Below, one piece after another: positions 34,201 to 53,410 of a DNA stretch of 64,000 bases. Each line of letters begins with the position of its first letter. Position 1 is the first letter of the stretch. The notes below the pieces were generated by a model, which worked only from the letters and a program-made list of their open reading frames with translations, searched no databases and had not been told where the DNA came from. Origin of the DNA: Spirochaetia bacterium (GTDB lineage: Bacteria > Spirochaetota > Spirochaetia > CAKZLE01); the NCBI GenBank assembly GCA_963677595.1, contig OY782041.1, positions 2,496,001 through 2,560,000 on the forward strand. Direction: 5' to 3'. The position numbers were made by a program, and so were the translations under genes.

Positions 34201-34965
34201 ATGATAAATAGAAACGAAACGATAAAATCGATACTGTACCCGATACTGTTCATTGTACTGTTGATCATTATCTGGCACTATGCTGTACGAATCTTTGAGA
34301 TTGCCGTCTATATACTTCCAGATCCGTATGATATTCCTGGTAATCTCGTTGACAACTTCGAGATTATCATGAACCATACGAAGATCACGTTATATGAGAC
34401 CTTCCTCGGGTTAGCACTCAGTATCGTGTTTGCAGTTTGCATCTCCGTACTGATTGTCAGTTCTGAGGTTGCTGATAAAGTTCTTATGCCGCTGATGATC
34501 CTATCACAGTCCTTCCCGAAAACAGCCATAGCCCCGCTCATGGTCATCTGGTTCGGGTATGATACCCTCCCTAAGATCATCATGAGTTTCCTCATAGGAT
34601 TCTTCCCGATAACCATGAACATGGTAATGGGTTTGCGATCCCCAAGCGAGGAGATGATGGATCTTATCAAGTCCCTTTCAGCTACGAAAGGGCAGATATT
34701 CATGAAAATGAGAATACCCGCTTCTATACCGTATTTCTTCAATGGGATCAAGATCTCTATTCCGATGTGTCTTGTCGGTGCAGTCGTCGGGGAGTTCGTC
34801 GGAGCTAATAAGGGACTTGGGTATGCGATTCTCATGGCTAATAACGAGTTCAACACCATCCTGGTATTCTCTTGCTTAGTCGTACTTTCCATCGTAGGTG
34901 CAGCATTGTATTTCCTGGCAGAGCGGCTCGAGAGGATGTCAGCTCCCTGGTACAAGAAGAACTAG
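34201..34965 (+). CDS. ABC transporter permease (TauC/SsuC-like)
   Basis: ILPDP, QSFPKTAIAPL..IWFG, GAVVGEFVG...GLG. Confidence 0.93.
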   Translation: MINRNETIKSILYPILFIVLLIIIWHYAVRIFEIAVYILPDPYDIPGNLVDNFEIIMNHTKITLYETFLGLALSIVFAVCISVLIVSSEVADKVLMPLMILSQSFPKTAIAPLMVIWFGYDTLPKIIMSFLIGFFPITMNMVMGLRSPSEEMMDLIKSLSATKGQIFMKMRIPASIPYFFNGIKISIPMCLVGAVVGEFVGANKGLGYAILMANNEFNTILVFSCLVVLSIVGAALYFLAERLERMSAPWYKKN

Positions 34966-35011
34966 AAGATCAACTATCCAGAATAATGAACTTTTTACAA
35001 GAGGTGTGTAT

Positions 35012-36010
35012 ATGAAGAAGTTTATGAATGATCCGATGAATTTCGTAAATGACATGATGTCAGGGATCATGTTGGCTCATGGGGACCTGTACAAACTGGC
35101 AGCCAATGACAGGAAGTGCCTGGTACGGAAAGAGACCCCTATTGAGGGGAAGGTTGCCATCGTCACGGGTGGAGGATCCGGTCATCTGCCGGTATTCCTC
35201 GGTTATGTTGGGGAAGGGCTTGCTGACGGCTGTGCCGTTGGGAACGTCTTTTCCTCACCGACTGCCCGACAGATCTATAAAGTTGCAAAAGCAGTCAGCG
35301 CCGATAAGGGAGTCCTCTTTCTCTACGGGATGTACCAGGGCGATATGATGAACTTCGATAAGGCTGCCGATATGGCACGGGAGGACGGCTTGACGGTCGA
35401 ATCCCTCAGGGTATCGGATGATGTAGCATCAGCACCCGCCGATCGTTGGCAGGAACGACGAGGTGTCGGTGGTATCTTCTTCGCCTATAAGATCGCAGGG
35501 GCGATAGCCAAGACGGGAGCTTCCCTGGATGAGGTCATTGAAGTCACGAAAAGGGCAATCACGAACATCCGTACGCTCGGTGTGGCGATTTCCTCCTGTA
35601 TCCTTCCCGCAATGGGGAAGGAGACCTTCGAGATCGAAGCGGACAAGATGGAGATCGGCATGGGGATCCATGGAGAATCGGGTGTCGAACGGGTGACTAT
35701 GAAGAGTTCGAAGGAGATCGCTTCCATCCTCGTGGATACTGTCTGTGAAGATGCCGGCCTGAAAGCCGGGGAAGAGGTCGCGGTTCTGGTGAACAGCCTT
35801 GGGGGCACACCGCTGGAAGAGCTCTATATCCTCTATGGGGACATCTACCCGCTGCTCGAGGCACGGGGATTGAAGGTCTATAAAAAGTACATAGACCGGT
35901 ATGCATGTTCTATGGAGATGCAGGGAGCATCCCTGAGCCTGATGCGCCTGGACCCGGAACTCAAGGAACTGCTTGATGCAGAAGCAGCTTCCCCGTTCCT
36001 GAACCTGTAA
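35012..36010 (+). CDS. dhaK: Dihydroxyacetone kinase family subunit K
   Basis: MKKFMNDP, GGGSGHLP, GNVFSSP, RRGVGG, GMGIHGE. Confidence 0.9.
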   Translation: MKKFMNDPMNFVNDMMSGIMLAHGDLYKLAANDRKCLVRKETPIEGKVAIVTGGGSGHLPVFLGYVGEGLADGCAVGNVFSSPTARQIYKVAKAVSADKGVLFLYGMYQGDMMNFDKAADMAREDGLTVESLRVSDDVASAPADRWQERRGVGGIFFAYKIAGAIAKTGASLDEVIEVTKRAITNIRTLGVAISSCILPAMGKETFEIEADKMEIGMGIHGESGVERVTMKSSKEIASILVDTVCEDAGLKAGEEVAVLVNSLGGTPLEELYILYGDIYPLLEARGLKVYKKYIDRYACSMEMQGASLSLMRLDPELKELLDAEAASPFLNL

Positions 36011-36024
36011 GGGGGGAGAAATCT

Positions 36025-36645
36025 ATGGATACGAACAAGATGACAGGCATGATACAGGCTGTATGTGAAGACCTGATCTCCCGGAAGGATGAGTTCTGCG
36101 AACTTGATGCAAAGGCAGGTGATGGGGACCTGGGAGTGACCCTCGTATATGGCTGCAGGGCAATCCTGGAATACCTTGAAGAGTATGACCTTGATGTGAT
36201 GACTCCCGGCGAGATCCTCGAAGGCTGTGGCGAGGCATTCGAGGAGAACACCGGATCCACATTATCGATCATCATCGCTGAGATGCTCTATGCAGCAGCG
36301 AAATCACTTGGGGAAAGTGAAGATCTCGGCAAAGCTTTGCTGGCAGCTGTAGACGGGGTGGCGAAACGGGGAAAAGTCACGATTGGTGACAAGACGATCT
36401 ATGACTCCCTCAAACCATCGGCTGATGCATACATGCTGCAGCAGAACTTGGGTGTGGATGTTGCGGCATGCCTGGAACACGCTGTTGAGGCTGCAACTGC
36501 CGGTATGGAGAGTACCAGGGGGATGAAGGCGAGGACCGGACGAGCAAGCTGGATGGGCGACGGGGTCGTCGAGCATGTCGATGCCGGGTCTGTCGTCTGG
36601 GTTCGGATACTAACGAAAATACAGGATCTTGTGATCCAGGATTAA
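36025..36645 (+). CDS. dhaL: Dihydroxyacetone kinase family subunit L
   Basis: LDAKAGDGDLG, GDKTIYD, GRASW, DAG. Confidence 0.88.
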   Translation: MDTNKMTGMIQAVCEDLISRKDEFCELDAKAGDGDLGVTLVYGCRAILEYLEEYDLDVMTPGEILEGCGEAFEENTGSTLSIIIAEMLYAAAKSLGESEDLGKALLAAVDGVAKRGKVTIGDKTIYDSLKPSADAYMLQQNLGVDVAACLEHAVEAATAGMESTRGMKARTGRASWMGDGVVEHVDAGSVVWVRILTKIQDLVIQD

Positions 36646-36672
36646 TACTATTTATTGATGAAAGGTGAATAT

Positions 36673-37773
36673 ATGTTCAAACTCGAAAACGTAGCACGTG
36701 ACTGTATCATGAAGAGTGATAAGTACATTCCGGGGAAACCCGTCGAAGAGGTTGAGAGGGAGTACGGGGTGAGCGACAGTATCAAGCTCGCTTCGAACGA
36801 GAACCCCTTCGGGGCATCACTCGTAGCGTTCAAGGCAATGGTGAAGGAACTGACGACCCATTCCCACCTCTATCCTGAAAGTTCAAGTTTTAAACTGAAG
36901 ATGGCCCTTGCGGAGAAGCATGCTGTCGACCCAGGAATGATACTGGTAGACAACGGCCTTGACGGCGTCATCAACACGTTCGGCATGACCTTCATAGATC
37001 CCGGTGACAAGGTGGTTACCTCCGATATCACATTTCCGGCTTATAAGAATATTACCACGAAGATGAACGGGAACCTCGTTGTGGTTCCCGCTGCCGATGA
37101 TCTCGGGTTCGATATCGACGGTATCCTTGAGGCTGCAGGGAGTGATGCGAAGATCATCTTCCTCTGTAACCCGAACAACCCGACGGGGAACATGATCGGG
37201 AAGGCAGATTTCGAGAGGATCATGAAAGCCGTGCCGGAGACGACCCTGGTCGTCTCTGACGAAGCCTATTTCGAGTTCGCAGTCGACGAGGAGTATCCCG
37301 ATACGATCTCATACCTGAACGAGTATCCTAACCTGGTCGTACTGAGGACGTTCTCGAAAATCATGGGACTAGCCGGGATCCGGGTCGGTTATATGATCGC
37401 TGATCCCAATATCGTAGAGGTCATGATGAAGGCGAGACTCCCGTTCCCGGTGAACAGGATCGCTGAGGCTGGGGCCCTTGCATCACTGACAGACCAGGAA
37501 TTCATAGAACGGGTCGTGACCCATACCGTCAGCGAACGGATATGGTTGAAGGAGCAGCTGGAAGCCATGGGGATGACTGCTGAAGAGAGTCATACGAACT
37601 TCCTCTTCGTGAAGCTGAACAGGCCAATGGGGACGCTGTATGAAGACCTGCTGCGAAAAGGGATCATCCTCCGACCAGTAGCCTATAACGGAGCTGACTA
37701 TTTCAGGATCACCATCGGGACGGCTGAAGAGAACAGGATCCTTCTCGACGGACTGAAGGATATCCTGGGGTAG
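36673..37773 (+). CDS. hisC: Histidinol-phosphate aminotransferase-like (aromatic aminotransferase) paralog
   Basis: YIPGKP, KLASNENPFG, CNPNNPTG, DEAYFEF, RTFSKIMGLAGIRVGY; not in a his operon. Confidence 0.85.
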   Translation: MFKLENVARDCIMKSDKYIPGKPVEEVEREYGVSDSIKLASNENPFGASLVAFKAMVKELTTHSHLYPESSSFKLKMALAEKHAVDPGMILVDNGLDGVINTFGMTFIDPGDKVVTSDITFPAYKNITTKMNGNLVVVPAADDLGFDIDGILEAAGSDAKIIFLCNPNNPTGNMIGKADFERIMKAVPETTLVVSDEAYFEFAVDEEYPDTISYLNEYPNLVVLRTFSKIMGLAGIRVGYMIADPNIVEVMMKARLPFPVNRIAEAGALASLTDQEFIERVVTHTVSERIWLKEQLEAMGMTAEESHTNFLFVKLNRPMGTLYEDLLRKGIILRPVAYNGADYFRITIGTAEENRILLDGLKDILG

Positions 37774-37794
37774 AAAGGAAGAAAGGGCTTGGGT

Positions 37795-39039
37795 ATGGAT
37801 TGCGATAGCGAGAGGATCAAAAGACGACTGGATGAGCTGTCCGGGTTCAATGCGACTCCTGGATGCGGTATAACCCGGTTCTCTTACAGCAGAGAGGACC
37901 GTGAAGCAAGGATCTATCTCATTGAACAGATGGAAGCGATCGGACTCTCGGTATCCATAGATGCTGTAGGCAATATCAGGGGAAGAATGGAGGGGACAGA
38001 CCCTCAGGCTCCCCCAGTCATCACCGGCTCCCATATCGATACCGTGTTTCACGGCGGCAAGTATGACGGTGCGGTTGGAGTCATCTGTGCCCTTGAGGTG
38101 CTGTCGGTCTTGAAGGACAAGAGCTTATCGGGGAAACACCCCGTGGAGATCATGATCTTCTCAGAGGAAGAGGGGTCGAACTTTGATTCCACCATGGCAG
38201 GCAGTAAGGCATTTGCTGGGAAGTATACCCTGGAAGACCTGAAGAAGATCCGGAACCGAGATGGGATGGCCATGTACACCATGCTGAAGGATGCAGGGTT
38301 CCACCCTGACAACCTTCCTGCGGAACAGGACGGGAGAGCCCCGATCAAGGCATTCATCGAGCTGCACGTCGAGCAGGGAGGAGTTCTTGATGCCGAGAAT
38401 CGTTCGATAGGTATAGTGAAGGGAATCAACGGCAGCCGGTGTTTGGAGATCATCGTGAAAGGCGAGGCCAACCATGCCGGGGCTACCCCTATGTATCTCA
38501 GGCGTGACCCTATGGTTGCCGCTGCCATGATCATTAGTGAGATAGACCAGGCAATGAGTAAGGATACTGATGCTACCACGGTTGCGACCGTAGGAAAGAT
38601 CCATGCATCCCCCGGGATCTCGAACTGCATTGCTGAAGAGGTGAGGTTCACCGTCGATGTCCGGGATATTGTGGAGAGCGGTATCGAGCGGGTCTGCAGG
38701 GCAATCGATACGACCACTGCCAGGGCTGAAGAACAGTATGGGGTGAAGGTCTCGCAGGGGATCCTCGCGGAATCGGATGTCGTGACCTTGTCTGACACGG
38801 TGATCTCCGTCCTCAAGGAGAAGGCAGAAACCCGGGGTGTCTCATACCGGTGCATGAACAGTGGTGCCGTCCATGATGCAGCAATGCTGGGCTCTCTCAC
38901 CGATGTAGGTATGATCTTCGTCCCGAGTATCAGGGGAAAGAGCCATGTCCCTGAAGAGGATACGAGGATCGAAGATATAACGTATGGGGCAGATCTCCTG
39001 CTGGAAGGCATCTGCGGACTAGCCGGGATAGAGATCTAG
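37795..39039 (+). CDS. Zn-dependent M20 amidohydrolase (N-carbamoyl-amino acid/allantoate amidohydrolase family)
   Basis: GSHIDTV..GGKYDG, EEEG, ELHVEQG, NHAGATPM, SGAVHDA, GKSH.PEE. Confidence 0.92.
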   Translation: MDCDSERIKRRLDELSGFNATPGCGITRFSYSREDREARIYLIEQMEAIGLSVSIDAVGNIRGRMEGTDPQAPPVITGSHIDTVFHGGKYDGAVGVICALEVLSVLKDKSLSGKHPVEIMIFSEEEGSNFDSTMAGSKAFAGKYTLEDLKKIRNRDGMAMYTMLKDAGFHPDNLPAEQDGRAPIKAFIELHVEQGGVLDAENRSIGIVKGINGSRCLEIIVKGEANHAGATPMYLRRDPMVAAAMIISEIDQAMSKDTDATTVATVGKIHASPGISNCIAEEVRFTVDVRDIVESGIERVCRAIDTTTARAEEQYGVKVSQGILAESDVVTLSDTVISVLKEKAETRGVSYRCMNSGAVHDAAMLGSLTDVGMIFVPSIRGKSHVPEEDTRIEDITYGADLLLEGICGLAGIEI

Positions 39040-39072
39040 ATCATATTACACAAACGATGTGAGAGGTGGACT

Positions 39073-40467
39073 ATGAAGAAGCTGATAACGAACGGGACAA
39101 TCATCACGGCGAAGGAAGAGTACCGTGCAGACCTGCTGATCGAGGACGGGAAGATCGTGAAGATCGGGAAGCAGCTGGAGGCAGAAGGCTCCGAGGTCGT
39201 GGATGCAGCCGGCTGCTACATCCTGCCCGGGGGCGTGGACCAGCACGTGCATTTCTCGTTCGAGTTCAACGGGACGAAGGTGCGGGGCTTCGAGACCTCG
39301 AACGCGGCAGCGCTCGGGGGGACGACGACGGTGATCGAGTTCGTGAACCAGATCCGCGGCAAGGGACTGCTCGAGTCGATCGAGGAGTACCGGAAGGAGC
39401 AGGTTGACGGGATCGCGCTGGTGGACTACAACCTGCATGGTATCATCACGGACCCGCGGGAAGAGGTCTTCGAGGAGATGGAGTCGCTGGTAGCGGCAGG
39501 GTATACGACGGTGAAGCTGTTCATGGCGTACAAGGGGATGTTCTTCCATGCGGATGACGATGCGATCCTGAAGGCGCTGAAGGCAGGGAAGAAAGCCGGT
39601 GTGACGATCATGGTGCATGCGGAGAACGCCGAGGCGATCGATGTGTTCCAGAAAGAACTCGTGGCAGCGGGAAAGACCGAACCCTACTCACATGTGTTAT
39701 CGCGGCCGCCGCTGGTGGAGGCAGAGGCGACGAGGAGGGCGATCTACCTGTCGCAGCTGGCCGATGCGCCGATCTACATCGTGCATGTATCGTGTACTGA
39801 GGCGGTGAACGAGGTGAAGAAAGCCTACACCTCAGGACTGCCGGTGCGGGGAGAGACCTGCTCGCACTACCTGGTGCTCGATGACAGCAAGCTGGCACTG
39901 CCGGACTTCGAGGGGGCGAAATATGTCTGCTCACCGGCACTGCGAAGCGCAGACCACCATGAGTCGCTGTGGGAAGCGATCGATATGGGCTGGCTGAACG
40001 CGGTGAGCTCGGACCACTGCGGGTTCGACTGGGCAGAACAGAAGCACATGGGGAAAGATTCCTTCGTGAACATCCCGAACGGGGCACCGGGGATGGAACA
40101 CCGGCTGGCGATCCTGTGGACCTACGGGGTGGAGACGGGACGGATCACGAAGCAGAAGCTGGTGGAACTGTTCGCGACGGAACCGGCGAGGAACACGGGG
40201 ATCGATTACTGCAAGGGGCATATAGCCATCGGCTATGATGCGGACCTGGTGGTGTTCGACCCGACATGGAAGGGCGTGATCACGAACGAGCGAAGCCTGC
40301 AGGGCGTGGACTACACGCCGTATGAGGGGATGGAGCAGATCGGACGGGTCGAGAAGGTCTTCCTGCGAGGCGAGCAGATCGTCGACGGCGGGGAGTATAT
40401 GGGAACGGCAGTGAAGGGAACGCACGTGAAGGGGAGACCCTTTGGTGCGACCTATAAGCAGAGATAA
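39073..40467 (+). CDS. hydA: Dihydropyrimidinase / D-hydantoinase
   Basis: PGGVDQHVH, KLFMAY, VHAEN, IVHVS, SDHC. Confidence 0.93.
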   Translation: MKKLITNGTIITAKEEYRADLLIEDGKIVKIGKQLEAEGSEVVDAAGCYILPGGVDQHVHFSFEFNGTKVRGFETSNAAALGGTTTVIEFVNQIRGKGLLESIEEYRKEQVDGIALVDYNLHGIITDPREEVFEEMESLVAAGYTTVKLFMAYKGMFFHADDDAILKALKAGKKAGVTIMVHAENAEAIDVFQKELVAAGKTEPYSHVLSRPPLVEAEATRRAIYLSQLADAPIYIVHVSCTEAVNEVKKAYTSGLPVRGETCSHYLVLDDSKLALPDFEGAKYVCSPALRSADHHESLWEAIDMGWLNAVSSDHCGFDWAEQKHMGKDSFVNIPNGAPGMEHRLAILWTYGVETGRITKQKLVELFATEPARNTGIDYCKGHIAIGYDADLVVFDPTWKGVITNERSLQGVDYTPYEGMEQIGRVEKVFLRGEQIVDGGEYMGTAVKGTHVKGRPFGATYKQR

Positions 40468-40497
40468 ACGACAACGTACAATACAGGAGAACAAGCA

Positions 40498-41319
40498 ATG
40501 GCAAAGATAACGGATCTGAAGGGGTACTGTTACCCGTTGAGCCCGGAAGGGAAGGCATCGCTGCTGGGGGACATGCCCTGGCACTACGGGACGGAGTACC
40601 TGAACATCGCATACAAGACGGATGCGGATGCGATCGCGAAGTGGATACCGGAGCCGCTGGAGCCGGGCCCGAACCCGGACACGGCCTACGTGGCATTCAG
40701 CAAGTGGTGGTCAGTATGGGATGACGCGAAGGACATGGCATACGTGAACCCGGAGCGGACGCAGTACACCGAGGCGGCGATCTGGGTAGGGTGTTCATAC
40801 AAGGGACAGCCGGCACAGATGTGTCTGTCGATCTGGGTGGACAATGACTTCACGATGGCACGGGGCTGGTTCATGGGCTTCCCGAAGAAGTTGGGATCGA
40901 TCAGTATCACGAGCTATAACGGGCTGAACCCGGGGATGAGCGAAGAGGGAGAGGGATCGATCCTCTCCGGGATCGTCTCCTCGCACGGGGAGCGGCTGAT
41001 CAAGGGTACGGCTACGCTGGAGCGGAAGATCGACCGGGCAGAGCTGCCGAAGCCGATGGGGCTGCCGATCTTCCACCTGCGGCAGTTCCCGAGCCTGGTG
41101 CCGGGCGCACAGCCGTCGGTACTGGAGATCGTGAAGCTGGGAGCGAAGGACTGGAACTGGGGCCCGGATGTCTGGGCCGGGAGCGGATCGCTTGAGTTCC
41201 TCCCCTCGGAGCTGGAGGAGCATATGCCGCTCAAGCCGAAGGAGATCATCGGATCCTACCGGTTCCGTAACGGGTACACCTTCGACGGCGGTGAGGTCGT
41301 CTACGACTACCTGAAATAA
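40498..41319 (+). CDS. Acetoacetate decarboxylase family protein
   Basis: P.SP.G.ASL....PWHY, Y.EA, WVDND..MARGW.MGFPKKLG (Schiff-base Lys region). Confidence 0.88.
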   Translation: MAKITDLKGYCYPLSPEGKASLLGDMPWHYGTEYLNIAYKTDADAIAKWIPEPLEPGPNPDTAYVAFSKWWSVWDDAKDMAYVNPERTQYTEAAIWVGCSYKGQPAQMCLSIWVDNDFTMARGWFMGFPKKLGSISITSYNGLNPGMSEEGEGSILSGIVSSHGERLIKGTATLERKIDRAELPKPMGLPIFHLRQFPSLVPGAQPSVLEIVKLGAKDWNWGPDVWAGSGSLEFLPSELEEHMPLKPKEIIGSYRFRNGYTFDGGEVVYDYLK

Positions 41320-41351
41320 GGGGAACGTCAACAATACTTGCTAATAGCAAT

Positions 41352-41392
41352 TGTGTGCATCCTGTAAAAGAGTGGGGGATGCACACAGTTTT
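41352..41392 (+). terminator. Intrinsic terminator ending the island operon
   Basis: TGTGTGCATCC...GGATGCACACA stem followed by GTTTT. Confidence 0.7.
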
Positions 41393-41537
41393 GGAATGTA
41401 CACCATATAACACAGGATATCGTATCAAAACATATATAAATAGCATATTACGTTCTGTATTGGTTGCATTCTGTGGTATGATATCTGTATAATTGCTGGT
41501 TAAGAAGTGTGTAGATGCAGCAGTGAAGGTATAGTAT

Positions 41538-42263
41538 ATGAATGATATCCATAAAGGCGAATATAACAGCAGTCTCCTATCTCCCATAAACAGACCGAAG
41601 GTCACAGACCTGGTCGTGGAGAAGATCCTGGAACTGATTGAGAATAATACCCTGCTTCCCGGAGATAAACTCCCCTCACAGCGTGAACTTGAACGCCTGC
41701 TGAATGTCAGCCGTTCCACGCTGCGTGAGGCTCTGTCCGGTTTGATCATGACCGGGTATATAGAATCAAGGGTAGGTTCCGGGTTCTATGTGAAGGAACG
41801 GGAACCGGAGTACGGAGTAGATGGGGTCTCGGGAGAGGATCGTGATGAACTCGTACATTCGCTCTATGAAGCCAGGATCTATATCGAACCGATCCTTACC
41901 GGCCTGGCGGCAAAACGTGCAACAGATGAAGAGATAGCAAGTCTCTATAAGATCGTCGCTGATATCGAAGAGGCTCTTCCTTCCGAGGAGGCGATGCTCA
42001 TCGGGCTGCAGCTTCACCAGAGGATCGGCGAAGTGGCGGGGAATCCCTTCCTGGCTGATGTCGAGAAGAAGCTACTCAATGAGTTCAGCCGATTCATCCT
42101 CCATGTGTTCGATGACCCGGTCCTTTCAGACAAGGAACTCAACCTCCATATGGAGATCGTGAAAGCTATCGAGTCACATGATGTGCAGAAGGCAAGGCAG
42201 ATCGCTTTCGACCATATAAATAGTTTCGCTGAGGATCACGGCATAGAACTGGCTGGTTTCTAA
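41538..42263 (+). CDS. FadR/GntR family regulator
   Basis: PGDKLPSQREL...LNVSRSTLREAL...G.I....GSG; FCD-like C-terminus. Confidence 0.93.
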   Translation: MNDIHKGEYNSSLLSPINRPKVTDLVVEKILELIENNTLLPGDKLPSQRELERLLNVSRSTLREALSGLIMTGYIESRVGSGFYVKEREPEYGVDGVSGEDRDELVHSLYEARIYIEPILTGLAAKRATDEEIASLYKIVADIEEALPSEEAMLIGLQLHQRIGEVAGNPFLADVEKKLLNEFSRFILHVFDDPVLSDKELNLHMEIVKAIESHDVQKARQIAFDHINSFAEDHGIELAGF

Positions 42264-42678: not shown

Positions 42679-44238
42679 TTACTGCTTCAGGTCGCCGACC
42701 GCCTTCACCCTGATCCTGGTCGCGTTGCCGGGCAGGTAGGCAAGGGGAATATCCTCTACCTCCACGATCCTGATGGTATCAGGGGCTGCGCCGGCCTTGG
42801 CGGCCTCTTCGGTAGCGATCCTCTTAGCATCAGCGACCGCATCATCACGGGACATGGTATCAAGGGAGTAGACCCGTTCGATCTGGCCGCTGACCTGGGC
42901 GATAGCCGCACCGAGGGCGTTCGCGACCCCGAAGTTCTCCGGGCGGATGATCTGTTCGGTCCCGGAGATCTCATCACTGATCAGCAGGGAGCCTCCCCCT
43001 ACCAGTACGAGGGGTACCGGGTCCTTCGTGAGCTTCATCGAGTCGATCCCGTTCTGCACCAGCTGCATCATAGCCTCATGCGCTGCCTTCGCGGTATCGA
43101 GCGGTATACCCTCCACCCTGGACGGGTCCCCGAGTTCCGCCATGCCGAGGCGTACCGCGATGTCGGTAGCTGTCATGGTGGACCCGCCGAAGACCATGGC
43201 CTCTTCGGTGATCCGATAGCCGACGCTGTCAGGGCCGACGGTGATGCCATCTTCTGTCTCCCTGATGATCGTCCCGCCCCCGAGCCCGAGGGAGTTGAGG
43301 TCCGGCATCCTGAAATTCGTCCGTGCCCCGCCGATCTCGACAGCCAGGGAGGACTCCCGCGGGAAGCCCTGCCTGATGACGCCGACATCGCTGGTGGTCC
43401 CCCCGACATCAAGCACCATGGCATCCTCATAGCCGCTGAGGAACGATGCCCCGCGGATACTGTTCGTAGGCCCGCAGGCAATGGTAAGGATCGGGTATTC
43501 GATCGAATAGTCGATACTCATCAGCGTCCCGTCATTCTGGCAGAGGTAGACCTTCGCGGCAGTCACTCCCTCATCCTGCAGGGCCTTCCTGAACCCGAGT
43601 GCGGTAGACCTCGCGACCTTGTTGAGTGCGGCATTGAGGATGGCGGCATTCTCTCGTTCCAGCAGGCCGATGGAGGCGATCTCATGCGACTTGGTCACCG
43701 GGATATCCTCCCCGAGGATCTCCCGTGCCATCTCGGCGGCACGGTCCTCGTGGTCGTAGGATACCGGAGAGAAGATCGAGGTGATCGACAGCGCTTCCAC
43801 CGATCCCTTCATGGACTCCAGCGAGCTCCTTAGTTCCTGCTCATCAAGCGGGAAGATCTCCTTCCCGTTGAACTCGTGCCCGCCGGTTACGTGGTAGACC
43901 TGGCTGCTGACCGCAGCTATGAGGTCTTTAGGCCAGTCTATCATCGGTTCTATAGCCATACCGGCCGGTTTCCCGATCCTGATGACCCCGGTCTTGAGCA
44001 GCCGGCTCCTGGTGACGATCGCGTTGGTGGAATGGGTGGTGCCGAGCATGGCATAGGCAATATTCCCCCGGTCTATATCGATTTGGCCCAGGACCGAATG
44101 AAGGGCATCAAGGATCCCGTCGAACACATCCGTAGTGGTCGGCCGCTTGACCGAGGCTATGATATTCCGGTTATCGTCAACGATCACCGCGTCGGTGTTC
44201 GTCCCGCCGACATCTATACCGATTCTGTATTCCATCAT
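42679..44238 (-). CDS. Hydantoinase/oxoprolinase (HyuA-like) family protein
   Basis: IGIDVGGTNTD, GTTHSTNA, LERENAAILNA, GPTNSIRGA, DVGGTTSDVG, GLGGG; start overlaps the DUF917 stop. Confidence 0.92.
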   Translation of the reverse strand: MMEYRIGIDVGGTNTDAVIVDDNRNIIASVKRPTTTDVFDGILDALHSVLGQIDIDRGNIAYAMLGTTHSTNAIVTRSRLLKTGVIRIGKPAGMAIEPMIDWPKDLIAAVSSQVYHVTGGHEFNGKEIFPLDEQELRSSLESMKGSVEALSITSIFSPVSYDHEDRAAEMAREILGEDIPVTKSHEIASIGLLERENAAILNAALNKVARSTALGFRKALQDEGVTAAKVYLCQNDGTLMSIDYSIEYPILTIACGPTNSIRGASFLSGYEDAMVLDVGGTTSDVGVIRQGFPRESSLAVEIGGARTNFRMPDLNSLGLGGGTIIRETEDGITVGPDSVGYRITEEAMVFGGSTMTATDIAVRLGMAELGDPSRVEGIPLDTAKAAHEAMMQLVQNGIDSMKLTKDPVPLVLVGGGSLLISDEISGTEQIIRPENFGVANALGAAIAQVSGQIERVYSLDTMSRDDAVADAKRIATEEAAKAGAAPDTIRIVEVEDIPLAYLPGNATRIRVKAVGDLKQ

Positions 44239-45329
44239 TGGGCCTCCTGCTTCGCGGCGAGCTGCTCTATCGGTGTGTAATCGAGGTCGTACCCGAAGTA
44301 TCGCGGGCCGACCGTCTCGATCCCCTTCGGGGTCCTCCATTTCTGGTCACAGGGGATCCCGATGACCGCGACTCTCCTGCCGAACTTGAGGGTCTCGGTC
44401 GTCACGGGGATAGCCGTATCCACATCCAGGATGCAGATGAGGTCAGGTACTGATGCGACGACCTTTCCGTCCCGATGGGCGACCAGGTTCTCGTTCTGGA
44501 AGCTGACCTCCATCGACCCTCCGGTATACTCATCGATCCCGCTGAGTCTGCAGAGTCCCCGGTTGAAGCCCCCCTTGATGTCCCTGCTGACATCGGTGAT
44601 CTTTCCCTTGAATAGTTCATACCCCCGGGTGATCTCCAGCAGCTCCCCGATGGGGTTCGCATTGTCCTTCCGTGCATCGGCGATGACCCGGCCGATCTGC
44701 TCGGAGAAACTCATGATGCCTGCGATCCCTGAATCCTTGACCTGGGACCCCAGCATCGAGTAGATACTGATCATGACTGACGCTCCCATGGTGACCGTGC
44801 AGACCCGTGCGATCTCCTCAGCCCAGTTGTTGGAGATCGTCTGGAGGATCACGCTGTTCCCCTTCTCATCGACGATCACCATCGGGCTTGCCGGGATACC
44901 GTCAAGGTGGTAGGTAACCATCTGCAGCTCCGGGAAGGCCCGTCCCATCCCGTCCGCATCGACGAGGGGGATCCCGAGCTGTGCCGCAACGGCGATCGGT
45001 ATCATGGAATTGACCCCGCCGGCCTCGATGGGGATGGTCGCATAGACCTTCTTCCCGAGCACCTCCTCGAGTCCCTTGAACGCGGTGATGAACTCCTCCC
45101 CGTTGGGGATCTTCTCGATGATGACGATCGGTGCGCCCATCATGGCTGACGGGACGACCAGTGCATCATCAGGGAGTTCCTCAGGTGAGAGGAGTTGGAC
45201 CGGGCCGTACTTCCTGATGGCATTCAGGGCCATCAGCCGCCCGATATGGGGGTCTCCCCCGCCTCCTGTGCCAAGTAAAGACGCTCCAAGCGCTATATGC
45301 TCTATAGCCTGTTCGTCTAACAATCTCAT
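44235..45329 (-). CDS. DUF917 family protein (S-methyl-thiohydantoin desulfurase-like)
   Basis: LGTGGGGDP, MGAP...EK, IEAGGVNS, VDADGMGRAFPELQM, FQNENL, VPDLI. Confidence 0.9.
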   Translation of the reverse strand: MRLLDEQAIEHIALGASLLGTGGGGDPHIGRLMALNAIRKYGPVQLLSPEELPDDALVVPSAMMGAPIVIIEKIPNGEEFITAFKGLEEVLGKKVYATIPIEAGGVNSMIPIAVAAQLGIPLVDADGMGRAFPELQMVTYHLDGIPASPMVIVDEKGNSVILQTISNNWAEEIARVCTVTMGASVMISIYSMLGSQVKDSGIAGIMSFSEQIGRVIADARKDNANPIGELLEITRGYELFKGKITDVSRDIKGGFNRGLCRLSGIDEYTGGSMEVSFQNENLVAHRDGKVVASVPDLICILDVDTAIPVTTETLKFGRRVAVIGIPCDQKWRTPKGIETVGPRYFGYDLDYTPIEQLAAKQEAQ

Positions 45330-45404: not shown

Positions 45405-46694
45405 TTATGCTTCTGCTTCTGCAGCGGGAGCTGCCTTCGTGACCAGGACCTTGCTGAGGACGAGGTAGAGCACTCCCGCGATGACGATAGCGTTGACAGC
45501 CTGTGATCCCCAGCTGACGAAGAGCCCGACGAGGGAGCCTGCAAGCCAGGAGATGATCCCTGCCCAGTTGACGCCGGGAACCGGCTTCCAGTTCTCTGCC
45601 CGGCCCCGGTTCATGATCCAGTAGTCGGCGATCATGACTCCCGCGATCGGCGTGATCCCTGCAGTCAGAACCGTAAGGAAGGAGATGAAGTAGTTGATGA
45701 TGCCCGAGATGGCGAGGATGGTCCCGATGCCGCCGGCAACTGCGGTAGCCAACGCCCGCTTGTTACCCTTGAGGTTCAGCATGTTCGTGATCGCCAGCCC
45801 GCCGGAGTATGCGTTGACCGCATTGGTCGTCCAGGTCGCCAGGATGAGGATGATGAACCCGAGTACCGGGAAGCCCAGTGTGCTCACGACCTGCGTGATA
45901 TCATAGGTGCCCGCTACTACGGACATGAGTGCCCCTGCGACGAGGAGGGCTGTCCCGATGGGAAGTACCCCGACGACAGACGAGAGGATGGATCCGGACC
46001 GGTCCTTCGCATACCGGGAGTAGTCGCCGGCAATGACGCCGCCTACAGCGAACCCGCCAACCGAGATGGCGACTCCCTGGAAGAATGACATCCCGCCGGT
46101 CGATGAATGGGCAGCGAGCCCTTCCATGCCGTAATTCTTGAGTGCCATGGTCGTGCCGTAAACGGCGAGCAGGATGAGGGCGGGTACGGCGATGTAATTG
46201 AGGTAGGAGAGTGCCTTATACCCGAGTATGGCGGTTGTCAGCATGATGATCCCCCAGATCAGGGAAGAGAGCCATACGGGGAATGCGACACCAAGCTGGC
46301 CCATGAACCCTGAGAAGGAGGCTCCTGTCACGGCTGTCTGCACCCCGAACCAGCCCATGACTGAGACCCCGAGGACGAGTGAGATGATGAAGCCTGATCC
46401 TTTGATACCGAATGCGGAGGATGCGTTGATCACCGTCGGTCTGCCCAGGTCAGATCCCTGCATGCCCTGGAAGGTCATGAAGATCACGACGATGAGGTAT
46501 CCCACGATACCTGCAGCGATTCCCTGCCCGAGCGGCATTCCCGAAACGATCGCCCCTCCTACCATCAGTGAGGGGACCGATATGACGGCCCCGGCCCAGA
46601 TCAGCGCAATACTCAGCCATGATCGTCTCTGATTGGCTGGGACCTGTTCAAGGGCGACCTGCTCAACGAACCCTGATTTCTTTTCTTCTACCAT
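45405..46694 (-). CDS. Cytosine permease / NCS1 family transporter
   Basis: About 12 TM segments; AFG..GS, GWFGVQ, DYSRYA, WTTNAVNAYS. Confidence 0.9.
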   Translation of the reverse strand: MVEEKKSGFVEQVALEQVPANQRRSWLSIALIWAGAVISVPSLMVGGAIVSGMPLGQGIAAGIVGYLIVVIFMTFQGMQGSDLGRPTVINASSAFGIKGSGFIISLVLGVSVMGWFGVQTAVTGASFSGFMGQLGVAFPVWLSSLIWGIIMLTTAILGYKALSYLNYIAVPALILLAVYGTTMALKNYGMEGLAAHSSTGGMSFFQGVAISVGGFAVGGVIAGDYSRYAKDRSGSILSSVVGVLPIGTALLVAGALMSVVAGTYDITQVVSTLGFPVLGFIILILATWTTNAVNAYSGGLAITNMLNLKGNKRALATAVAGGIGTILAISGIINYFISFLTVLTAGITPIAGVMIADYWIMNRGRAENWKPVPGVNWAGIISWLAGSLVGLFVSWGSQAVNAIVIAGVLYLVLSKVLVTKAAPAAEAEA

Positions 46695-46726: not shown

Positions 46727-46742
46727 TGCAATCGGGATGCCA
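46727..46742 (-). promoter_or_regulatory. sigma54 (-24/-12) promoter of the permease-DUF917-hyuA operon
   Basis: Minus strand TGGCATCCCGATTGCA matches GG-N10-GC; divergent sigma54 activator adjacent. Confidence 0.85.
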
Positions 46743-46752
46743 ACTGTGTTCG

Positions 46753-46853
46753 TCTCATGCATGCACGGCAAAAAGTGAGAAACCACACTGGAAAGAGCAG
46801 GTTTAATGCGTGTGGTGAAAATATTTGAGAAAATATTGAGAAATAGTGAGAAT
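46753..46853. promoter_or_regulatory. Candidate enhancer (UAS) sites
   Basis: TCTCA(46753)...TGAGA(46776) inverted pair and phased TGAGAA repeats at 46826, 46837 and 46847. Confidence 0.45.
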
Positions 46854-48423
46854 CACGATAGAATACCCTATGGATTATACCATAGCAGCCCTCGAGGATT
46901 ATTTCAGCTGTTCTATCTCACTGCTTACCACACCGCTCGCCTCTGCCGAGACGCAGGACCTCATTCCCCGCTACGACGGGAAGGAGACGACCATCTCCAT
47001 AGATTCGAGGCGCCTCCCGGCTGAGATCCTCCTGAGGTGGAGATTCCCCGGGGAACGGCACTTCTCGCCGAACGAGCTCGCCCATATCCTGCTCTGCTCA
47101 CGGATGATCGGCCAGAAACATGCCGAGCAGGGACAGCTGTACCGTACTGACCTGTTTCGCCAGTTCTCGATGGTTCTCGGGGGACGTTCAGGGGAGTCCA
47201 TCGTGCTCATGGATGAGAAGCACCAGGTGATCTACCAGAACAGCGCTGCCAGGGACCGCAGGATCGTCAGCCGGTTCGAGGACTACCTGCAGCAGACGGA
47301 GGACAGGCTCGTTGATACCCGGATCGAGCACACCATCCTCCTCGGGGGTACCGCCCCGCTGCAGCTGCAGGTGAGGAACCTCTATCAGGGGAAAGTCTAC
47401 CTCGGAAGGATGATCACCGCAGTCCTGCAGGTCCGGGTCCCTGAATCCCAGAAGGCACCCCGGAAGGGGGCTGACGGCTTCCTCCACATCCTCGGGAAGG
47501 GTGGACAGCTTCCCAAGACTATGAGGATCGCCAGGAAGGCAGCCCTCACTGACTCGACCATCCTGCTCAGGGGGGAGAGCGGGACGGGTAAGGAACAGTT
47601 CGCCAGGGCTATCCATGGGCTCTCCCAGCGGAGGGACCGGCCCTTCGTCGCGATCAACTGTGCCGCGATCCCGGAGAACCTGCTCGAGAGTGAGCTCTTC
47701 GGCTATGAGGAGGGATCCTTCACCGGTGCCGTGAAAGGGGGGAAGATCGGGAAGATCGAGGCTGCGGAGACAGGGACGATCTTCCTCGATGAGATCGGGG
47801 ACATGCCACCGCATCTCCAGGCAAAACTCCTGAGGGTACTGCAGGAGCGTGAGTTCGAACGGGTGGGGGGGACCGACCCGATCAGGGTCGATGTCAGGTT
47901 CATCAGCGCAACCCACAGGGATCTCTCAGAACTCATGGAGCAGGGGACCTTCCGCCCGGACCTCTACTACCGGCTGAACGTCATACCGATCAATATACCG
48001 GCATTGCGGGAGCATCCGCAGGATATCGGGATCATGCTCAGCCATTACCTGAAGAAGTATGCCCTGCAGTCGAACCGCGGGTTCTGCTTCTTCTCCTATG
48101 AGGCCCTGGAACTGCTCAACTCCTATGCCTGGCCGGGAAACATCAGGGAGCTTGAGAACGTGGTCCAGTACTGCATGACCATGACCTCCTCAGATGAGAT
48201 CGGGGTGGAGGACCTGCCGCCCGGCATCATCGTGAGGAAGCAGAGCATCCGGGATGAGGACCTGCTGTCTTCGACCGCGGGGAAGCGGAAAGCTGCACGA
48301 TACGAGATCCTGAAGCTCATCGATTATTTCGGTGACTCCACCGAGGGGAAGCAGCGTGCCGCGAACCACCTAGGGATCAGCACTGCCACACTCTACCGAA
48401 GACTGCAGGGAGGCGGATCATGA
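46846..48423 (+). CDS. sigma54-dependent enhancer-binding transcriptional activator
   Basis: GESGTGKE, INCAAIPENLLESELFG, GSFTGA, FLDEIGD, WPGNIREL, C-terminal Fis HTH. Confidence 0.93.
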   Translation: MRITIEYPMDYTIAALEDYFSCSISLLTTPLASAETQDLIPRYDGKETTISIDSRRLPAEILLRWRFPGERHFSPNELAHILLCSRMIGQKHAEQGQLYRTDLFRQFSMVLGGRSGESIVLMDEKHQVIYQNSAARDRRIVSRFEDYLQQTEDRLVDTRIEHTILLGGTAPLQLQVRNLYQGKVYLGRMITAVLQVRVPESQKAPRKGADGFLHILGKGGQLPKTMRIARKAALTDSTILLRGESGTGKEQFARAIHGLSQRRDRPFVAINCAAIPENLLESELFGYEEGSFTGAVKGGKIGKIEAAETGTIFLDEIGDMPPHLQAKLLRVLQEREFERVGGTDPIRVDVRFISATHRDLSELMEQGTFRPDLYYRLNVIPINIPALREHPQDIGIMLSHYLKKYALQSNRGFCFFSYEALELLNSYAWPGNIRELENVVQYCMTMTSSDEIGVEDLPPGIIVRKQSIRDEDLLSSTAGKRKAARYEILKLIDYFGDSTEGKQRAANHLGISTATLYRRLQGGGS

Positions 48424-49523
48424 TACTGTTCACGAAGGAGATGATAAAACCGCTCTACTACGGATCGCTCATGACTGCCTGCGGGGGCGGCGAGTACTCT
48501 GATCACCTCCCGATCATCGTGGAGAAGATGGTCGAGCGCAACGGCCCGGTCCGGTGCATCGGATTGGATGAACTCGAGCCCTCGGCTACCTCCCTCACGA
48601 CAGGCATCATGGGAAGCATGCTGGAAGCAAGCCTCCAGACCGGTGATGAGGGGAGGCAGGTGGTTGAACGGTTCTGCAGCCAGCTGCAGATCGATATCCA
48701 GGCCCTCTTCACGATCGAGGCTTCCAGCCTCAACGTGCTCTACCCCCTCCTCGTCTCCTCCCTCATGGGGATCCCGATCATCGATGGGGACTGTATGGGG
48801 CGAGCCTTCCCCGAGTTCCAGATGACCACGGCCGAGGCAGCGGGTGAGAAGATCGCCCCGATGAGCATCCTGACACCGAAAGGTGCCTATTATTTCTTCG
48901 AGGATATGGAGAACCTGCTCTTCGAGGTCCAGGCACGTGAGATCGTGAGCCATGATACGGGGATCGCCTATTTTGCCGGCTTCCCCCTCGATACTGCCAG
49001 GATCCGGTCGATCATGATCCCCGGTACCCTCTCCTTCAACTATACGGTCGGGAGCTGCTTCATGGGGGTCTCCTCCTATGCCGAACTGTTCTCACGGCTG
49101 CAGGAGGTCACGAAGAACAGCATCTACGGTTGTGCTGTGGAACTCTTCACCGGGACCGTCTCGACGCTCGCTACAGCTTCCGACGGGGGGAGGAGCTGGC
49201 TGAATGTCAGGGTGAAGGGGTACGGGACCTACCAGAACAGTGAGTTCTCCGTCCTCTCCCAGAATGAGGCCCTCATCGCATTCCGGGACAATGCGGTAGC
49301 TGCCATGGTGCCCGACCTGATCACCCTGGTCGATCTGCGGACCTTGAAGCCGTTCTCGATCACGGCGATACACGAGGATATGCGAATAGCAGTGATCGGG
49401 ATACCTGCACCGGTCCGTCTGAAGACGAAGTCGATGCTGAACGTACTCGGCCCTGCCTGTTTCGGGTATAACAAGGAGTATGTTCCCCTTGAGACCATCT
49501 ACTCATCCTGGTACTTCTCATAG
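48420..49523 (+). CDS. Divergent DUF917 paralog
   Basis: DGDCMGRAFPEFQM, QNE.L, VPDLI retained; Gly-rich motif altered to TACGGGEYS; ATGA overlap with the activator. Confidence 0.82.
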   Translation: MILFTKEMIKPLYYGSLMTACGGGEYSDHLPIIVEKMVERNGPVRCIGLDELEPSATSLTTGIMGSMLEASLQTGDEGRQVVERFCSQLQIDIQALFTIEASSLNVLYPLLVSSLMGIPIIDGDCMGRAFPEFQMTTAEAAGEKIAPMSILTPKGAYYFFEDMENLLFEVQAREIVSHDTGIAYFAGFPLDTARIRSIMIPGTLSFNYTVGSCFMGVSSYAELFSRLQEVTKNSIYGCAVELFTGTVSTLATASDGGRSWLNVRVKGYGTYQNSEFSVLSQNEALIAFRDNAVAAMVPDLITLVDLRTLKPFSITAIHEDMRIAVIGIPAPVRLKTKSMLNVLGPACFGYNKEYVPLETIYSSWYFS

Positions 49524-49531
49524 GCGGCGGT

Positions 49532-50833
49532 ATGGACAGACTTCTGGATTTGATCGTATATGCAGGGCATAATGGCTTTCACTTCGGCCTGTGCTGCCAG
49601 TTCGACTGGATCGCCAGGCGTAGCGTGGATGTAACCCCGGAGAGGAGCCTGTATGAGGAGGTCACCTCCTTCCTCCTGACCGCGGCGGACCTGTTCGACC
49701 GGATCGGCAAGATCGTGCTGGTCACCGATATCGCCGCCCGGTTTCCTGAAGTGCTCGCCGAAGATCCCAAACGTATCGGGTATATACGGATCGCGCCTGA
49801 CCAGTATACGCCGGAGTACATGATGAAGCTGGTCTCCGAAGCCGGTGGGGAGCTGCTGGTGGAGAATATCAGGCCGGGGGCGATCCTGAGCCAGGCAGAT
49901 GCCGCAGGGGCGGCTGGGAAGTTCCTTGCTGCCGGCATCTCCGATATCGTGATCCTGAGCACCTTCCAGATCGAACATACCCATGAACGGCAGATGATCA
50001 GGGACCTCCTCAGCCGAGCCGCACCGGATAGCTTCTCCTTCCATACCCTTGAGGCGCCGGAGTATGAATCATTCCTTCTCCTGGAGAACCGCCTTCTGGC
50101 CGGGGTCTGCCTGAAAGATTCCCTCAGCCGGGAAACCCGGCAGGTGGAGTCCGCCTGCCGGAACCTGGGGATCGACTCCCCGGTATTCCTGCTCTCAGGC
50201 GAAGGGTACTGCATGGACCTTGCCACAGCACTGCGGGATCCTCTGAGGTGCTGGCAGGCTGACCATGCGGCAGTGCTGATCGGGGCCTCCCGCCTCTTCG
50301 GGCTGCCTGATGCCGTGGCGGCCTCATCTCGGGAGGACCATATCGTGATCGACCGCATCAAGGATCACCATCCCGTCGCGATGGGGAGGACCAAACAGTT
50401 CTTCGGGCTCCAGGTCTCAGGACCGCTCACCGGGGCCGTCGAGTTCGGCAGGACCCGGTACAGGCAGCGGGTCATCGATGCTATTGGGGCAGTGAACACC
50501 GAGCCAGGCCCCCTCCCGATCATCGATATCACCGGGGGGATCCTCGATGACCTCGAACTTGAAGCGCAGCGATTCGCCCTTGACTCCCGTACCTCTGCCC
50601 TGATCACCGGGGCGCAGTGTGCCCCCTTCCGTATGGATTTCTATGGGACTGCCCCAGCATCAGGGACAGATGAACTGCTCAGGTCATCGCTTAGGGAGGA
50701 GGCTGCCCGGTGGCTCGAATCATCAGGCATCAGGCTCAGGACGGTCACGGAAGAGTATATGAACCTCAAGACCCGGTATAGGAAGGAGGGCCAGCTGAGG
50801 ATGCGGCTCCGGGTCACCGGCGGCTTAAGGTAA
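49532..50833 (+). CDS. Degenerate hydantoinase/oxoprolinase-like protein
   Basis: Segments align by eye with 42679-44238 (LLENRLL.GV.L; VFLLSGEG..M...A...P; GASRLFG..DA) but both DVGGT motifs are missing. Confidence 0.6.
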   Translation: MDRLLDLIVYAGHNGFHFGLCCQFDWIARRSVDVTPERSLYEEVTSFLLTAADLFDRIGKIVLVTDIAARFPEVLAEDPKRIGYIRIAPDQYTPEYMMKLVSEAGGELLVENIRPGAILSQADAAGAAGKFLAAGISDIVILSTFQIEHTHERQMIRDLLSRAAPDSFSFHTLEAPEYESFLLLENRLLAGVCLKDSLSRETRQVESACRNLGIDSPVFLLSGEGYCMDLATALRDPLRCWQADHAAVLIGASRLFGLPDAVAASSREDHIVIDRIKDHHPVAMGRTKQFFGLQVSGPLTGAVEFGRTRYRQRVIDAIGAVNTEPGPLPIIDITGGILDDLELEAQRFALDSRTSALITGAQCAPFRMDFYGTAPASGTDELLRSSLREEAARWLESSGIRLRTVTEEYMNLKTRYRKEGQLRMRLRVTGGLR

Positions 50834-52141: not shown

Positions 52142-53410
52142 TTGAGAGATACTGAACGCATTCTCTATATCATGCTGCTGGGGATCCTGGTACTGGCAGT
52201 CGTGGTCGGAACAGCCTACCAGGGGCTGGTATCGACCCTGCAGGGCCTGCTCGAGATCCAGCTTCACCCGGCACGGCTGATCAATGATTTCGCAGTAGTC
52301 GGGGGGCCGGGGGCTGCCCTGGTCAATGCCTCGATCGTCGCTGGGCTGGCCCTGATGCTTATCGCCTTCAGCGGGGTATCGATCTCAGGGCCGACAGTTG
52401 CCGCCTTCTTCACGCTCTTCGGGTTCGGGCTGTTCGGGAAGACGCCGATCAACGTCATACCGATCATCATCGGGGTGGCTATCTCGGCGAAGATCGCGAA
52501 GAAGACCTTCAGGGAATACATCCTCATTGCCCTCTTCGGTACAGCTTTGGGCCCGGTCTTCAGTTTCATCGTCTTCGAGCTGGGCCTGGCAGGTCCCGTA
52601 TCCGTCATCGTTGGCACACTTGGGGGTATCGTAGCCGGTATCTTCCTGCCGCCTGTCGCCATGGCGATGCTCCATCTCCATCAGGGGTACAATCTCTACA
52701 ACATGGGCCTGACCTGCGGATTCGTCGGGCTGTTTGCCGCCTCCCTCATCGCTGCAGGCAACGGGGATATCACAGTCAAGGTCATCTGGCTCGATACCCC
52801 CGATACTCTGCTCACGCTGTTCATCCCCGTGCTCTCCCTCTACCTGCTGGTATTCGGGGCGTATCTCGGCAGGAAGAAAGCCTTTGCTGACATGATGGAG
52901 ATTCAGAGACTTCCCGGGAGGCTGCCGTCAGACTTCATGGATATGGTCTCCTCTGGCGGGGCCCTCATCAATGCAGGAGTCCTCGGCATCATCACCTGGC
53001 TCTACATCATCCTCATCGGTGGTGACCTGAACGGGCCCGTGCTTGGCGGGATCCTGACGGTCATAGGGTTCGGGGTGTTCGGGAAGCATGTTCGCAACTG
53101 CATCCCTGTTATGATCGGGGTGATCCTGAGTTGTCTCGTCTTCGGGAAATCCCTGACAGCCCCTGGACCGCTGCTGGCAGTACTCTTTGCCACTACATTG
53201 GCTCCCCTGGCAGGTGAGTTCGGGGCATTCACGGGGATCGTTGCCGGGTTCATCCACCTGGTCATGGTAGAACGGACGGGAAGCTGGCATGGGGGCATCG
53301 ATCTCTACAATAATGGGTTTGCCGGGGGACTGACCGCAGCCCTGCTGGTCTCAGTGATCGAATGGTACCGGTCATCACAGCCGGATGAGTTCGACGACTC
53401 ATTCAACTAG
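52142..53410 (+). CDS. DUF1576 family membrane protein
   Basis: Duplicated motifs GF..FGK...N..P..GV, LFGTALGP/LFATTLAP, H.GYNLYNMG/HGGIDLYNNGF. Confidence 0.8.
   Translation: MRDTERILYIMLLGILVLAVVVGTAYQGLVSTLQGLLEIQLHPARLINDFAVVGGPGAALVNASIVAGLALMLIAFSGVSISGPTVAAFFTLFGFGLFGKTPINVIPIIIGVAISAKIAKKTFREYILIALFGTALGPVFSFIVFELGLAGPVSVIVGTLGGIVAGIFLPPVAMAMLHLHQGYNLYNMGLTCGFVGLFAASLIAAGNGDITVKVIWLDTPDTLLTLFIPVLSLYLLVFGAYLGRKKAFADMMEIQRLPGRLPSDFMDMVSSGGALINAGVLGIITWLYIILIGGDLNGPVLGGILTVIGFGVFGKHVRNCIPVMIGVILSCLVFGKSLTAPGPLLAVLFATTLAPLAGEFGAFTGIVAGFIHLVMVERTGSWHGGIDLYNNGFAGGLTAALLVSVIEWYRSSQPDEFDDSFN

Follow-up and report, generated by a model that had tools for sequence, protein, structure and literature searches.

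Within a 64,000-nucleotide stretch of a Spirochaetia bacterium genome (assembly GCA_963677595.1, contig OY782041.1, positions 2,496,001 to 2,560,000; hereafter the window, in whose own numbering features are given), the gene of a sigma54 enhancer-binding activator is followed by two genes for diverged paralogs of the enzymes that it is predicted to regulate. Comparison of these genes across loci shows that the two paralogs, here called DUF917' and HyuA', are conserved and selected partners of the activator, and they probably form a two-subunit ligand sensor controlling it in trans. By analogy with DhaQ or with DhaK/DhaL-DhaR, we consider it rather likely that this control would be exerted through the GAF-like/PAS N-terminus of the activator.

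The locus consists of two divergent units, a permease-DUF917-hyuA operon on the minus strand and the trio of activator, DUF917', and HyuA' on the plus strand. The first gene of the target operon encodes a transporter assigned by family-model matches to the NCS1/cytosine-permease family (45405..46694). It is followed by a canonical S-Me-THD-like DUF917 gene identified by Pfam (44235..45329) and, coupled to it by ATGA, by an intact short HyuA-like ATPase of 519 amino acids in which Pfam and alignment reveal both DxGGT motifs (42679..44238). On the opposite strand, the stop codon of the activator (46870..48423; 517 amino acids) and the start of DUF917' (48420..49523; 367 amino acids) overlap as ATGA at 48420-48423, and a gap of 8 nucleotides (nt) separates the end of DUF917' at 49523 from the start of HyuA' (49532..50833; 433 amino acids). 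This layout, described in an earlier sequence-only reading of the same DNA, is reproduced by the coordinates, and the overlap and spacing suggest that the three genes are co-transcribed. The open reading frame of the activator opens at GTG 46846; ATG 46870 is the likely start, because homologs begin there. A second HyuA-like or HyuB partner for HyuA' was not identified at the window locus.

The divergence of HyuA' greatly exceeds what the sequence-only reading implied. BLASTP aligns it to the local HyuA with 24 bits and its Pfam match has an E value of 0.0037; pairwise BLAST and Pfam alone were judged insufficient as proof of homology, and profile and fold comparisons were needed. A profile of 36 HyuA' sequences retrieved caprolactamase (PDB 6yra) and N-methylhydantoinase (7hk5) at E values of about 5e-10, and a smaller profile of 6 sequences reached 7hk5 at 0.55. 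The predicted fold (predicted local distance difference test score, pLDDT, of 91) gave Foldseek TMq values of 0.62-0.74 to Apc, N-methylhydantoinase, acetone carboxylase, and caprolactamase. Profile and predicted fold together establish the homology of HyuA' with hydantoinase/oxoprolinase A subunits. It shares the fold of ATP-dependent A subunits (N-methylhydantoinase 7hk5/9h03, caprolactamase 6yra, and Apc 5l9w) but not their ATP motifs. The loss of both nucleotide-binding motifs, already seen in the window, is general: either DxGGT motif is kept in none of 40 HyuA' sequences, versus 75 and 72 of 78 intact HyuA. The GPxSV segment is absent from all 40, and the window protein has no counterpart to the region around G317-D358 in the intact enzyme. 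At the 91 positions invariant across the 78 intact short HyuA, the window HyuA' keeps 21 residues, compared with 13-25 in relatives from clostridia and spirochaetes and 61-65 in those from Bacillales; the first ATP loop has one changed residue in the Geobacillus HyuA' and is completely lost in that of spirochaetes. A quick HyuA tree, which took in 48 of the 78 intact rows and carried a long-branch warning, placed the 40 HyuA' on one side of a branch (Shimodaira-Hasegawa-like approximate likelihood ratio test, 95). Judged from this tree, HyuA' is a lineage of long standing rather than a recent duplicate of the gene next to it.

Matches to HyuA' in two genomes (G013 and G049) were rejected as orthologs, being HyuA fusion proteins of 942-967 amino acids. 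Proteins of this length at L012:8269-11097 and L013:8165-11068 combine a HyuA-like part with a different N-terminus, and many Spirochaetia have long frames of this kind; genes near these two are ones we take to be glycine-cleavage-like. A GntR-HyuA' fusion was not among the 60 plasmid records listed of 354.

DUF917' matches the N- and C-terminal DUF917 domains of Pfam with 104 and 137 bits (cut-off, 27) and shares 28% identity with the divergently transcribed canonical copy. It resembles the S-Me-THD family in having both domains and differs from it in that both local DUF917 genes score far under the NCBIfam equivalog cut-offs for (S-methyl) thiohydantoin desulfurases (450 and 440 bits), with 45 and 31 bits for DUF917' and 118 and 90 bits for the canonical protein. 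A gap in the scores delimits the clade to which DUF917' belongs, 43 database proteins with source names from Spirochaetota and Bacillota. The two motif changes quoted by the earlier reading (GTGGGGDP to TACGGGEY and EAGGVN to EASSLN) are present. Residues E72 and R249 and the glycine loop (G25, P27, and G30) are changed, the replacement of G30 being common to all 54 DUF917'-like sequences that were compared, and E102, N107, D124, D126, R130, E134, E171, R175, N279, E280, and D296 are retained. In the literature searched, neither the catalytic residues of the DUF917 family nor a characterization of the widespread DUF917-short-HyuA enzyme was found; a preprint calls DUF917 uncharacterized and probably hydantoinase-like (10.1101/2023.09.25.559410). 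The DUF917 tree was a quick run with a long-branch warning and one mis-clipped row (L021_9955). As far as the sequences tell, both paralogs form old separate lineages, which does not agree with the local duplication that had been proposed; the trees were quick runs with no clade test, and no direction of transfer is claimed.

The order activator-DUF917'-HyuA' was found in 14 loci from Spirochaetota and Bacillota, with full-length open frames in all 14, so that the trio is conserved across two phyla, as the earlier reading had wished to see checked. In 10 of these loci (the window, L014-L018, L159, L160, L020, and L077), of which L020 and L077 are distant metagenome loci, the trio is divergent from the enzyme operon or the sequence is cut there. 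At L056 the trio lies upstream of a sigma54 promoter and the operon, and its DUF917' groups with a Brevibacillus reuszeri protein. On Geobacillus/Parageobacillus plasmids (L114-L116; three read of eight matching records), all six genes stand in a row with the sigma54 promoter between activator and DUF917'. The module is carried by plasmid pNCI001 of Parageobacillus thermoglucosidasius (BCV53_RS19325-19350), and six DUF917'/HyuA' pairs were found in Bacillota records with consecutive accessions; the evidence from Bacillota and Actinomycetota comes from metagenome loci, plasmid records, and such adjacent accessions. Recent horizontal spread is suggested by one pair (P0138, P0029), which falls in the same 90%-identity clusters in records named Desulfitobacterium, Desulfosporosinus, Thermanaerosceptrum, Thermosediminibacterales, and Peptococcaceae.

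Among 401 Spirochaetia genomes, DUF917', HyuA', and the activator N-terminus were found in the same 7, a co-occurrence obtained by scoring the top few candidates per genome, among related genomes and with profiles built from these loci. An eighth genome (G003), which seemed to lack the pair, has its activator truncated by the end of a contig. In this set, 19 other genomes carry an intact short HyuA and gave no HyuA' match. In a second sample, of 401 genomes from across the phylum, the window's own genome was the only one in which DUF917' was found. Where HyuA' was missing beside the enzyme pair (23 loci), there was neither a sigma54 activator upstream nor a strict −24/−12 match within flanks of about 1-10 kilobases (kb). 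The trio was found at L056 among 75 other metagenome loci, where L052 has an activator about 8 kb off and no such pair was detected.

The pair diverges at the activator's pace and not at that of the enzymes: identities to genome G001 are 72, 50, and 64% for the activator and the pair, and 90, 84, and 87% on the enzyme side. Ratios of nonsynonymous to synonymous substitution rates (dN/dS) were well resolved only for L114 versus L115 (dS 0.2-0.4), since L114/L116 shows few changes and most distant pairs are saturated or undefined; the frames were taken from stop to stop and include a few upstream codons. The values were 0.08-0.10 for DUF917' and 0.17-0.21 for HyuA', compared with 0.09-0.12 for the activator, while the enzymes and permease gave 0.04-0.11. 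DUF917' and HyuA' are under purifying selection, with constraint looser than on the enzymes, and the neutral evolution that the earlier reading had allowed for was not seen. That the two frames are decaying duplicates without function is hardly credible. The 21 of 91 invariant positions left in HyuA' would suit decay, but the frames are full length in 14 of 14 loci, dN/dS is well under 1, the fold is confidently predicted, and the copies form distinct old clades across phyla. Decay was rejected by dN/dS and the HyuA' alignment, and is ruled out because both copies are under purifying selection. Paralogy to the regulated enzyme, selection, and linkage to the regulator, as looked for in an enzyme-paralog co-regulator, were all found, and the data support a pair that tracks the regulator rather than the enzyme.

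The activator matches the Pfam family Sigma54_activat with 237 bits (cut-off, 20.2), and an alignment of 11 orthologs shows intact Walker A (GESGTGKE), GSFTGA loop, and Walker B (FLDEIGD) motifs. Its predicted domain order is GAF-like, helix, PAS, AAA+, and Fis-type helix-turn-helix. In the model of residues 1-190, a helix of 40 residues lies between a small GAF-like domain and a PAS domain; the PAS domain gave a fold match with Z 10.3 (root mean square deviation, rmsd, 2.5; 93 aligned), and residues 1-88 matched CodY with Z 7.5 (rmsd 2.7; 85 aligned). Neither Pfam nor the predicted N-terminal fold contains a receiver domain, consistent with what had been noted from the sequence. Bacillales orthologs have only the PAS part at the N-terminus. 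Resemblance to the N-terminus of DhaR, DhaR(N), was found in fold matches to the 4lrx/4lrz complexes (PDB 4lrz, E 3.5e-3, rank 22).

Upstream of the permease, a motif match identifies a sigma54 −24/−12 element, TGGCATCCCGATTGC, on the minus strand (46728..46742). It is the single match within the window; its weight rests on position and conservation, because 12 of 100 shuffles also give one. A strict match is present in 10 of the 14 trio loci. A repeat search found four TTCTCA copies on the minus strand at 46776..46852, which are predicted to be enhancer sites of the activator. All 12 homologous regions printed contain at least 3 upstream copies of TTCTCA/TGAGAA. With 4 copies within 250 nt, the window site has the top count of the genome's 26 sigma54-like sites, a number reached by 0.015% of random 250-nt windows. 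Given that rpoN is present in the genome, the target side of a sigma54 enhancer-binding protein is represented by a −24/−12 promoter, upstream repeats, and rpoN, all of them features of the sequence. A candidate promoter of the trio is a plus-strand sigma70-like consensus match (10/12; 46836..46864) that overlaps the TTCTCA repeats and ends 5 nt before ATG 46870; the region holds 6 such matches versus 3.8 expected.

Clusters of shortened HyuA proteins in actinomycetes were indicated by a language-model search; four actinomycete records were read, and a Nonomuraea record was searched in part. In Rhodococcus JS3073 (L180), DUF917' and a HyuA' without DxGGT are followed through a GTGA overlap by a PucR-type regulator, divergent from intact enzymes. 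In Embleya (L179), DUF917' and a HyuA' without DxGGT are divergent from a PucR-type gene and head the enzyme operon. Two records (L181 and L182) have intact HyuA only, within the stretch read. Two further loci, L032 and L075, lack HyuA' but have a degenerate DUF917' whose gene overlaps the start of PucR. The link of an altered enzyme pair to a regulator gene thus recurs with a different regulator family, PucR, and the actinomycete DUF917' copies fall elsewhere in the DUF917 tree than that of the window. At L035:303-8900, the genes after PucR are those of a second, intact DUF917-HyuA pair, with the main operon beyond them, a layout that may be close to the one that preceded decay. Since PucR also lies beside intact enzymes (L035, L044, and L181), its adjacency by itself is not specific.

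Several observations weigh against a sensor role. DUF917' keeps 37 of 50 columns invariant across 212 canonical-type sequences, and 45-46 in Bacillales, so that it could be catalytic; NCBIfam names two other DUF917 groups as desulfurases. On its alignments DUF917' is best called altered, not clearly dead, and the earlier description as degenerate overstates the case for it. In Geobacillus/Parageobacillus the pair belongs to the enzyme operon, behind the sigma54 promoter; its earlier assignment to the activator's unit holds for the layout of the window and not for these plasmids. Genes travelling as one cassette co-occur whatever their function, and PucR genes flank intact enzymes without a degenerate copy (L044 and L181). 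The DhaR match is one among many PAS-containing matches, and the PAS/GAF N-terminus of the activator could bind ligand directly.

Two alternatives were weighed. The pair might be an ATP-independent enzyme, or accessory subunits of the intact DUF917-HyuA, standing beside the activator merely as part of a six-gene cassette. We regard this as unlikely, albeit with some appeal, given the invariant polar residues mostly kept in DUF917', the position inside the sigma54 operon in Geobacillus, the extra intact-looking DUF917 copies common in these operons, and the precedent of acetophenone carboxylase with two HyuA-like subunits (both NCBIfam models match HyuA). It is countered by the 11 of 14 loci in which the pair is not behind the enzymes' sigma54 promoter, by the enzyme occurring without the pair in 19 Spirochaetia genomes and 23 loci, by the much faster divergence of the pair, and, in L180, L032, and L075, by its coupling to the gene of a regulator from a different family. 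Alternatively, DUF917', with HyuA' as scaffold, would slowly make the true inducer, to be bound by the PAS/GAF of the activator, a regulatory role without contact that we consider improbable. The retained DUF917' residues and the predicted PAS and GAF-like domains would fit it, and expression apart from the enzyme operon could provide inducer ahead of induction; however, the intact enzyme at its basal level could supply inducer as well, and selection on a HyuA' devoid of ATP motifs is left unexplained. What mainly keeps both alternatives in play is the nearly intact look of DUF917' and, in Geobacillus, the location of the pair within the target operon.

If the pair is a sensor, as we favor, the permease would import a small cyclic amide or ureide whose ring the intact DUF917-HyuA would open with ATP. 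DUF917' and HyuA' would assemble like the intact pair and hold the same compound in the DUF917' pocket, with no ATP step. This complex would dock on the GAF-like/PAS N-terminus of the activator, and the ligand would alter the docking contact, allowing the activator on the TTCTCA repeats to open the sigma54 promoter. We give inhibition relieved by ligand a slight edge over co-activation, since the ATGA coupling points to synthesis in matched amounts, as with anti-activators; the gene coupling of NifL-NifA is a parallel. A complex prediction with DUF917', HyuA', and activator residues 1-195 (AAA+ left out) gave a score of 0.01 (mark, 0.32), which weighs neither way.

In yeast Gal3/Gal1, a duplicated enzyme has turned into a ligand sensor for its own pathway, and Gal3 still binds ATP; in contrast with the pair described here, that system is eukaryotic, has a single subunit, and acts via Gal80, whereas HyuA' has lost its ATP motifs. 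In bacteria, DhaQ is a paralog of the kinase subunit DhaK. Excerpts of PMC7590123 describe DhaQ as a ligand-binding co-activator of DhaS that switches on a catabolic operon in Lactococcus lactis. The proposed sensor would likewise act in trans on the transcription factor of a catabolic operon, but DhaS is a TetR regulator and DhaQ a single protein, while here a sigma54 AAA+ activator and two enzyme paralogs would be involved. In Escherichia coli, both subunits of the regulated enzyme, DhaK/DhaL, control DhaR, whose N-terminus is of GAF-PAS type (excerpts of PMC10084136). The window activator shares with it the type of enhancer-binding protein, a predicted GAF-like/PAS N-terminus, and the fold match to the DhaR(N) complexes 4lrx/4lrz; the difference is that active enzymes moonlight there and DhaR acts at a sigma70 promoter, whereas here dedicated diverged paralogs accompany an activator with a GSFTGA loop and a sigma54 promoter. 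The same excerpts include NifL-NifA, PspA-PspF, FleN-FleQ, and BtdS-RedR2, in which the product of a neighboring gene controls a sigma54 activator by protein contact (PMC10084136). NifL, PspA, FleN, and BtdS are not described there as paralogs of the regulated enzymes, and no sequence relation to them was found.

The activator-DUF917'-HyuA' arrangement was not found described in the literature searched, with subscription papers, including those on DUF917 desulfurases, outside its scope. A paper on the Clostridiales sigma54 regulon (PMC6615313) mentions no hydantoinase or oxoprolinase in its main text, and no hydantoinase, oxoprolinase, or DUF917 in one supplement. The sequence-only reading had not recognized the design as described; this stands for the arrangement but not for its principle, known from DhaQ-DhaS and DhaK/DhaL-DhaR.

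Among the neighboring genes, a DUF1576 membrane protein gene (52142-53410) lies shortly 3' of HyuA', likewise at L014, L015, and L018 and not in more distant loci. At L009:12026-13921 (G001), a 631-amino-acid open reading frame, presumably transposase-like, sits between HyuA' and the DUF1576 gene. A plus-strand cluster at 34898-42263 abuts the end of hyuA; in G001 and G002 the module does not have it as a neighbor. It includes a HisC-type aminotransferase, an M20 carbamoylase, a dihydropyrimidinase, an acetoacetate-decarboxylase-family protein, GntR, and genes that we take, from their motifs, to be DhaK/DhaL-like. Many operons in L021-L096 have two to four DUF917 copies per HyuA, mostly canonical-scoring, and at L170:6408-9805 (G043) hyuA and the permease are in pieces adjoining an intact DUF917. 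Hydantoin-racemase-family genes lie beside the module at L056:17001-17717 and L180:1706-2425, which fits a hydantoin-like substrate.

The recurrence beside PucR invites the tentative view that the pair is a portable two-subunit sensor, derived from a heterodimeric enzyme and reused by unrelated regulators, namely, sigma54 activators in Bacillota and Spirochaetota and PucR-type regulators in Actinomycetota, with stages of decay surviving. A reporter built from the window's promoter could be used to screen substrates and would give a practical handle on the DUF917-short-HyuA enzyme, and the plasmid of Parageobacillus thermoglucosidasius makes the module testable in a cultured strain. If the sensor role is true, sigma54 activators would have an extra route of signal input, in which a dedicated two-protein enzyme mimic replaces a kinase or ligand-binding domain, and the HyuA' proteins, which keep 61-65 and then 13-25 of the 91 invariant positions, would provide a graded natural series from enzyme to sensor.

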